NCBI RefSeq assembly: GCF_003334405.1
Contig: NZ_QOWM01000054.1
Reading direction: 5' to 3' (one strand)
Source of the DNA: Escherichia coli
Lineage (GTDB): Bacteria > Pseudomonadota > Gammaproteobacteria > Enterobacterales > Enterobacteriaceae
DNA length: 734 nucleotides
Below the pieces are notes generated by a model. It saw only the letters and a list, made by a program, of their open reading frames with translations. It ran no database searches and was not told the DNA's origin. Position numbers and translations under genes: made by a program. Within the stretch, counting starts at the first letter, position 1, and the number at the start of each line of letters is the position of its first letter. Positions 1 to 734 of this stretch are shown piece after piece.

Positions 1-734
1 CTCTCCCGCACCTACAGCAGTTACCGGACAAAAACGCCCGCGCCGGTGGGGAGCCTCGGCCCCGGCTGGAAAATGCCTGCGGATATCCGCTTACAGCTGC
101 GCGATAACACACTGATACTCAGTGATAACGGCGGCAGAAGCCTGTATTTTGAGCACCTGTTTCCCGGTGAGGACGGTTACAGCCGCAGCGAGTCACTGTG
201 GCTGGTGCGCGGCGGCGTGGCGAAACTGGATGAAGGTCACCGGCTGGCCGCACTCTGGCAGGCGCTGCCGGAAGAACTCCGCTTAAGTCCGCATCGTTAT
301 CTGGCGACAAACAGTCCGCAGGGGCCGTGGTGGCTGCTCGGTTGGTGTGAGCGGGTGCCGGAAGCGGATGAGGTGCTGCCTGCGCCGCTGCCGCCGTACC
401 GGGTACTGACCGGGCTGGTGGACCGCTTCGGGCGCACACAGACGTTCCACCGCGAAGCCGCCGGTGAATTCAGCGGCGAAATCACCGGCGTGACGGATGG
501 TGCCTGGCGTCACTTCCGGCTGGTACTGACCACGCAGGCGCAGCGGGCAGAAGAAGCCCGGCAGCAGGCCATTTCCGGCGGGACGGAACCGTCCGCTTTT
601 CCTGATACCCTGCCGGGTTACACCGAATATGGCCGGGACAACGGCATCCGTCTGTCTGCCGTGTGGCTGACGCACGACCCGGAATACCCGGAGAATTTAC
701 CTGCCGCGCCGCTGGTGCGCTATGGCTGGACGCC
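1..734 (+). CDS. Partial CDS (both ends outside the window, or start at ATG 73-75), hypothetical protein of unknown function; Trp/Arg/Pro-rich, probably two regions separated by a linker
   Basis: Seen in sequence: frame 1 is open for all 244 codons (my manual translation found no in-frame TAA/TAG/TGA), while + frame 2 stops at TGA 113-115 and + frame 3 at TAA 105-107. Third-position GC is about 74% against about 62% overall. Codon choice is strongly biased (CTG, CCG, GCG, CGC, GGC), with single rare ATA (115-117) and AGA (136-138). Translation from 73: MPADIRLQLRDNTLILSDNGGRSLYFEHLFPGEDGYSRSESLWLVRGGVAKLDEGHRLAALWQALPEELRLSPHRYLATNSPQGPWWLLGWCERVPEADEVLPAPLPPYRVLTGLVDRFGRTQTFHREAAGEFSGEITGVTDGAWRHFRLVLTTQAQRAEEARQQAISGGTEPSAFPDTLPGYTEYGRDNGIRLSAVWLTHDPEYPENLPAAPLVRYGWT... 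Upstream codons 1-72 (LSRTYSSYRTKTPAPVGSLGPGWK) also have high GC3 in the same frame, so the ORF probably continues upstream. No family assignment is possible without a database search. Confidence 0.8.
414..421 (+). other. Chi octamer (5'-GCTGGTGG-3'), a candidate RecBCD recombination hotspot
   Basis: Seen in sequence: exact GCTGGTGG at 414-421 on the + strand, within codons GGG-CTG-GTG-GAC. The reverse complement CCACCAGC does not occur in the window. Established knowledge: this octamer is the Chi sequence recognised by E. coli-type RecBCD approaching from the 3' side. Function here depends on the host having that Chi specificity, which is plausible given the enterobacterial-like codon usage but unproven. 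Confidence 0.4.
459..490. repeat. Perfect 8-bp inverted repeat (CGCCGGTG ... CACCGGCG) with a 16-nt spacer, a potential intragenic stem-loop
   Basis: Seen in sequence: 459-466 CGCCGGTG and 483-490 CACCGGCG are exact reverse complements; the spacer 467-482 (AATTCAGCGGCGAAAT) contains an EcoRI site GAATTC at 466-471. No U/T-run follows, so it is not an intrinsic terminator. One such 8-bp repeat could arise by chance in GC-rich DNA of this length. Confidence 0.25.

Follow-up and report, generated by a model that had tools for sequence, protein, structure and literature searches.

Rhs proteins ('rearrangement hot spot') were named for the near-identical repeat shared by rhsA and rhsB (PMC2935791, PMC3150448), and the classical picture of these elements is that of a G+C-rich core followed by an A+T-rich, variable core-extension (PMC2935791). 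In homologs that have been studied structurally, the unfolded toxin lies within a closed cage built from the YD repeats, with an N-terminal plug shutting one end. A C-terminal aspartyl protease frees the toxin inside the cage, a cleavage that is essential for killing, and through its PAAR end the protein sits on VgrG, to be delivered by a type VI secretion system, or T6SS (PMC10684867, PMC8765631, PMC8636562). Linkage of rhs genes to vgrG, eagR or a T6SS is common in the family and does not define it.

Tse5 of P. aeruginosa (8CP6), a pore-forming T6SS effector, resembles E. coli RhsA in its short N-terminus (putatively PAAR-like in RhsA), in the cleavage-site Pro48, and in its DUF6531 domain and YD cage, all at nearly the same numbering, and both proteins carry a DPxG-x18/19-DPxG motif. 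The C-terminal toxin of Tse5 is, however, unrelated to that of RhsA, and while a known VgrG carries Tse5, no vgrG adjoins the K-12 rhs genes. RhsA of P. protegens (7Q97) and Rhs1/Tre23 of Photorhabdus laumondii (7PQ5) also share the YD cage, the N-terminal plug and the C-terminal aspartyl-protease plug with E. coli RhsA. Both undergo double autocleavage, and the His-Pro pair at their cleavage site aligns with H47-P48 of the E. coli protein. They have long N-terminal regions (prePAAR, transmembrane helices and a full PAAR domain) and need EagR chaperones, while in E. coli RhsA the plug is preceded by only 47 residues. The BC components of Tc toxins (YenB/YenC2, 4IGL; TcdB2-TccC3) and the teneurins have the same YD cage and Rhs-associated core. 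Their N-terminal closure differs from the Rhs plug: Tc toxins use a beta-propeller and teneurins an FN-plug. TcB has a domain homologous to the Rhs plug (PMC8765631).

The window (the whole stretch of DNA analysed here, 734 nucleotides) is 100% identical over all of its bases to both rhsA and rhsB of E. coli K-12 MG1655, and 99.73% identical to K-12 rhsC (L003, 4803–5536). In the rhsA region (L001) the match lies at 9001–9734, within a coding sequence of 1377 codons (8782–12915), and in the rhsB region (L002) it lies at 5412–6145, again with 100% identity. Nucleotides 1–734 on the plus strand correspond to codons 74–317 of rhsA/rhsB, inside the G+C-rich conserved 'core'. The closest described proteins, RhsA (b3593) and RhsB (b3482) of K-12, belong to the rhsABCF subfamily ('clade I') and have the same bases, reading frame and position within the gene as the window. 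The window is, with a probability of about 0.95, an internal fragment of E. coli rhsA, a sequence that is also found in rhsB. As a sequence present in several copies, the same in rhsA as in rhsB, it has no single locus to which it can be mapped, and is not assignable to one of these two copies over the other.

A megablast search of 5,426 complete E. coli genomes found the window in 3886 of them, at a median of three copies per genome, and the best match was at least 99% identical in 3,251 records. The matches are annotated as 'RHS element core protein', RhsA, RhsB or RhsC. Across these genomes there are 11,969 matching places, only one of which is on a plasmid, and the copy number of the core segment ranges from 1 to 8 per genome. 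At the sensitivity of megablast, 1,540 of the 5,426 genomes gave no match to the core segment.

Frame +1 of the window has no stop in 244 codons, and the other five frames have 3–10 stops each. Mononucleotide shuffles of the sequence had on average 6.6 stops per 244 codons, and just 0.1% of 20,000 such shuffles were open. The window has a GC content of 64.7% (68.6, 53.1 and 72.5% at the three codon positions). Compared with the K-12 paralog rhsD, to which it is 76% identical (185 of 243 residues), the differences are distributed 37/36/103 over the codon positions and are synonymous in 66 of the 124 changed codons, a pattern indicating purifying selection on frame +1. The earlier note had read the whole window as one open plus-strand coding frame, and the stop counts, the shuffles and the comparison with rhsD bear this out.

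The encoded protein was described in the same note as having about ten tryptophans. It is indeed Trp-rich, with a count of nine (3.7% of residues), and the other features of composition are as claimed: PWWLLGW is encoded by nt 325–345, the sole Cys by nt 346–348, and Leu (30), Gly (24), Arg (22) and Pro (21) are abundant. Eight of the nine Trp are invariant across K-12 RhsA, RhsB and RhsC, seven are also kept in RhsD, and several align with Trp residues of Tse5. To judge from these alignments, the conserved Trp would fit buried structural residues of a beta-rich cage. Only two bases separate the window from rhsC, a silent T to C change at position 342 and a T to G change at 505 that replaces Trp169 by Gly. 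The Trp169 codon (TGG, 505–507, plus strand) marks the rhsA/rhsB allele, and is a Gly codon (GGG) in both rhsC and rhsD of K-12. A MAFFT alignment of the four K-12 paralogs showed a single hypervariable, indel-bearing spot at nt 562–591 (plus strand), where QQAISGGTEP of RhsA, RhsB and RhsC is replaced in RhsD by the Ser-rich TSSLSSSDSSRPLSA, five residues longer. This spot is probably a surface loop. It is preceded by the conserved sequence QAQRAEEAR, which is helical in a low-confidence model.

The NCBIfam profile RHS_core (NF041261) matches the window from end to end (E=3.6e-146, profile positions 74–325 of 1261). The window alone scores 488.8 bits, and falls short of the curated 2000-bit cut-off solely through being a fragment; full-length RhsA scores 2647.1 bits over profile positions 1–1261 and passes this cut-off. 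The complete protein also matches YD_repeat_2x (TIGR01643, 137.5 bits) and, at residues 1170–1247, Rhs_assc_core (TIGR03696). Pfam models searched against RhsA residues 1–1200 placed a complete DUF6531 domain at 46–123 (E=2.2e-17), ahead of the repeats, then ten matches to RHS_repeat (PF05593; E<=0.001) between residues 361 and 892, all downstream of the window and the first of them just beyond its end, and the RHS domain (PF03527) at 1143–1179. Within the window itself, DUF6531 (PF20148) is matched by amino acids 1–50 (model positions 28–74 of 74, E=9.9e-7), so that only 50 of the 244 residues are covered by a Pfam model. The proposal that the protein belongs to no assignable family is refuted by its identity to RhsA/RhsB, by the RHS_core and DUF6531 matches and by the alignment to Tse5 described below. 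The novelty was said to disappear if a confident match to a well-characterised housekeeping family were found; such a match has essentially been obtained, except that Rhs is an accessory polymorphic-toxin family and not a housekeeping one.

In searches against solved structures, full-length RhsA matched Tse5 (8cp6, E=6.9e-128), P. protegens RhsA (7q97, E=3.4e-83), Tse15, an Rhs protein of Salmonella bongori, and Tre23. Matches to teneurins and to YenC2/Tc-toxin C components were weaker and ran through the C-terminal core of RhsA only, outside the window. Amino acids 10–115 of the window align with Tse5 (8CP6) at E=8.9e-9. The first part of the window, nt 1–150 on the plus strand (RhsA 74–123), is the second half of the DUF6531 N-terminal plug as delimited by Pfam PF20148. 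In Tse5 the plug comprises residues 48–124 and coincides with DUF6531; it shuts off the cage at its N-terminal opening and holds the cleaved PAAR-like fragment in place (PMC10684867). Mapped from Tse5, window residues 1 to about 54 are predicted to be the second half of this plug. The cleaved PAAR-like N-terminal fragment of Tse5 is held by residues whose counterparts in the window are encoded by nt 136–192 (plus strand). In the phmmer alignment to 8cp6_B, the chain numbering of which is converted to Tse5 numbering by adding 47, window residues R46, F50, S61, S63 and E64 correspond to R116, F120, S131, S133 and E134 of Tse5. Five of the ten anchoring contacts listed for Tse5 (PMC10684867) are identical in RhsA, and by analogy these positions may hold its N-terminal fragment.

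The first cage stretch after the plug is encoded by nt 163–336 (plus strand; RhsA 128–185), and corresponds by phmmer to Tse5 residues ~125–190. It lies at the end of an aligned block that pairs RhsA 48–185 with 8cp6_B 1–143 (i-E=1.3e-17), and four conserved Trp fall within it, among them those of PWW in PWWLLGW. The start of the regular YD-repeat beta-sheet was located at nt 637–734 (plus strand; RhsA 286–317, window amino acids 213–244), equivalent to positions 189 onward of the Tse5 shell chain, and belongs to a second phmmer domain (RhsA 286–396 with 8cp6_B 189–305, i-E=1.9e-10).

Between these Tse5-aligned blocks is a segment typical of enterobacterial Rhs cores (nt 337–636, plus strand; RhsA 186–285, window amino acids 113–212), in which RhsA is about 55 residues longer than Tse5. 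It is covered contiguously by the RHS_core profile, includes a predicted helix followed by a linker, and holds the variable spot at nt 562–591. A degenerate YD-like repeat, the only such stretch inside the window, was recognised by eye at nt 418–528. When window amino acids 114–212 alone were compared with PDB sequences, only chance-level matches were returned, the best (E=0.08) being to an unrelated 'predicted protein'. An AF2 model of RhsA 1–420, made from a three-sequence alignment of the K-12 paralogs only, had a mean pLDDT of 37 with all window residues below 50, and was unusable. Amino acids 113–212 could form a clade-specific surface module, which might provide an interaction, for delivery or with a receptor, that needs no adjacent VgrG. 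This is a speculative idea to which we give little credence; if true, it would help to explain the persistence of rhsA/B/C-type genes without T6SS linkage, even in K-12.

Upstream of the window, RhsA residues 1–47 (L001, 8782–8922) form an N-terminus of the same length as the PAAR-like N-terminal part of Tse5 (Tse5-NT), and the cleavage-site proline is P48 in both proteins. The equivalent 47-residue Tse5-NT has been called PAAR-like (PMC10684867). Residues 5–8 of RhsA read literally P-A-A-R, which, together with the literature, suggests that its N-terminus is also PAAR-like; the Pfam PAAR model found no match in RhsA residues 1–1200, even at E<=10. RhsA P48 is the very first residue in the alignment to the Tse5 shell chain, where it is paired with Tse5 P48, the residue following the mapped K47|P48 cleavage. 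The RhsA sequence H47-P48-V-N-P-L-L-G (PVNPxxG motif) aligns with the mapped sites of Tse5 (K47|P48) and P. protegens RhsA (H304|P305). By analogy with these homologs, E. coli RhsA would be expected to cleave itself at H47|P48, just upstream of the window.

At the other end of the protein, RhsA residues 1221–1246 carry DPIG-x18-DPLG, a form of the family pattern DPxG-x18-DPxG (PxxxxDPxGL), and this is the predicted aspartyl autoprotease motif delimiting a toxin tip of 131 residues. Core identity among the K-12 paralogs is about 100% between A and B and 70–92% between A and D, and collapses to about 20% after the DPxGL motif. In rhsA the GC content falls from 61.7% in the core to 40.2% in the tip; the upstream flank has 51.9%. 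Since the autoprotease and toxin lie more than 800 residues downstream, the window would be expected to have no catalytic motif. Walker A and HExxH were absent from a motif scan of its protein, as the earlier note had stated. The DExD/H expression is matched once, by DEGH at amino acids 77–80; the match is isolated, without a Walker A, and was rejected as a helicase motif and attributed to chance.

Downstream of rhsA (L001, 12936–16382) are yibA, a HEAT-repeat immunity gene, and two orphan Rhs core/tip pseudogene fragments. Both fragments are N-terminally truncated and each is followed by an immunity-type gene, yibG (Sel1 repeats) in one case and a frameshifted Imm57 gene in the other. This array is the classical arrangement of displaced 'orphan tips'. 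In an account cited in PMC3150448 (Vlazny and Hill 1995), the C-terminal region of RhsA keeps stationary-phase cells from recovering, and yibA neutralises this effect. Genes for H-repeat-associated transposases (yhhI, a ybfL pseudogene and ybfD) are found at the rhsB and rhsC loci (L002, 10379–11515; L003, 11901–13854), and none is annotated at the rhsA locus examined. The flanks of the rhsA region (L001, 1–1027 and 16842–18343) hold paralogous pairs of genes for an HlyD-family secretion protein and a DUF3302 protein, yiaV-yiaW on one side of rhsA and yibH-yibI on the other.

In sequence, rhsA presents the full set of Rhs polymorphic-toxin features, its PAAR-like N-terminus being putative, and toxin, immunity and orphan tips are laid out at its locus as is usual for such genes. 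If RhsA works as its homologs do, the short PAAR-like N-terminus would be followed by a DUF6531 plug that shuts the cage at its N-terminal end, and the YD repeats would form the closed beta-sheet cage itself. The C-terminal aspartyl autoprotease plug (DPxG-x18-DPxG) would cut off the variable toxin tip, which would stay enclosed until delivery, and immunity would come from a small downstream gene, yibA in the case of rhsA. Enclosure of the toxin, and delivery by a T6SS in those strains that have one, are both what the homologs would predict for RhsA. The window encodes part of the lid and the first wall of the cage, helping to close it and, by analogy with Tse5, probably holding the cleaved N-terminal fragment. 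Its role is therefore structural and without catalysis, in agreement with the non-enzymatic, structural role that had been proposed.

No vgrG, hcp or eagR gene is present among the annotated neighbours of rhsA, rhsB, rhsC or rhsD in K-12. K-12 is not known to have a functional T6SS, so that delivery of its rhs copies is putative. The rhsA–D genes of EHEC are likewise unlinked to vgrG, and their rhsA/B/C clade has no known carrier (PMC7216683). In K-12 and other strains that lack a matching VgrG or T6SS, rhsA, rhsB and rhsC might not be delivered weapons but act inside the producing cell as modules resembling toxin-antitoxin systems, or they might be stranded effectors retained only for the immunity they give and as a reservoir for recombination. 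This is a question of the physiological role of the gene, and not of what the window encodes. The lack of an adjoining vgrG, hcp or eagR at any K-12 rhs gene is consistent with such a role. Salmonella Rhs elements have been reported as type II toxin-antitoxin modules (PMC7043789), and RhsA-CT, studied with yibA, gave a block of viability within stationary-phase cells (PMC3150448). However, purifying selection has kept the delivery architecture whole, and thousands of genomes share a near-identical core, which would be hard to explain if the tip alone mattered. Many E. coli strains with the same core are also described in the literature as having a T6SS. We therefore consider an intracellular or stranded role unlikely. 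The physiological role of the K-12 rhs copies is uncertain, and delivery of the vgrG-unlinked rhsA/B/C clade is an already recognised question.

The complete identity of the window in rhsA and rhsB could also mean that the sequence matters mainly as DNA, that is, as a 'rearrangement hot spot' giving rise to chromosomal duplications. Rhs elements were in fact discovered through recA-dependent unequal crossing-over between rhsA and rhsB, which duplicated glyS (PMC2935791, PMC3150448). Jackson et al. 2009 could find no report of a natural rearrangement brought about by rhs, and called the original phenotype artefactual (PMC2935791). The substitution pattern shows selection on the protein, and Rfam, searched with a permissive threshold, gave no RNA family for the window on either strand. 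A role chiefly as repeated DNA is thus very unlikely.

A further suggestion was that, if it came from an accessory or defence island, the window might encode one part of an uncharacterised system. Pfam covers only 50 of its 244 residues, with a model that is still a 'DUF', and residues 113–212 match no solved structure, so that on these grounds alone the family might appear unrecognisable. Against this are the 100% identity to the annotated RhsA and RhsB, the end-to-end RHS_core match, and the solved cages of homologous proteins. The PADLOC-DB v2 defence models gave no family at E<=0.01 with either the window protein or full-length RhsA, and the defence-island reading was rejected on this result. 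The accessory part of the suggestion was well placed, as rhsA is an accessory gene of inter-bacterial conflict; the uncharacterised defence system was not, as Rhs is known and PADLOC returned no match. That the window belongs to such a system is extremely improbable.

Two antisense open reading frames on the minus strand (119–439, 106 aa; 283–675, 130 aa) overlap the Rhs frame. They were rejected as genes, the substitution pattern fitting frame +1, and are the usual by-product of coding DNA with 65% GC. While these frames show that long spurious ORFs do occur at 64.7% GC, the likelihood that frame +1 is itself a chance open frame or a pseudogene fragment is negligible, given that it alone is fully open, that so few shuffles stay open, that its divergence from rhsD is biased to third positions, and that the whole gene, intact at 1377 codons, scores above the curated RHS_core cut-off.

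The window is, on the preferred reading, an ordinary piece of the long-described rhsA/rhsB, and its content is already known and not novel. As rhs was among the earliest repeated gene families to be reported from E. coli K-12 (1984), the discovery value is small. Solved structures now explain how Rhs proteins work, and the practical use of the finding is that the absence of catalytic motifs, which had made the protein hard to place, is just what is expected where a protein forms the lid and the first wall of a cage for a toxin used in bacterial competition.
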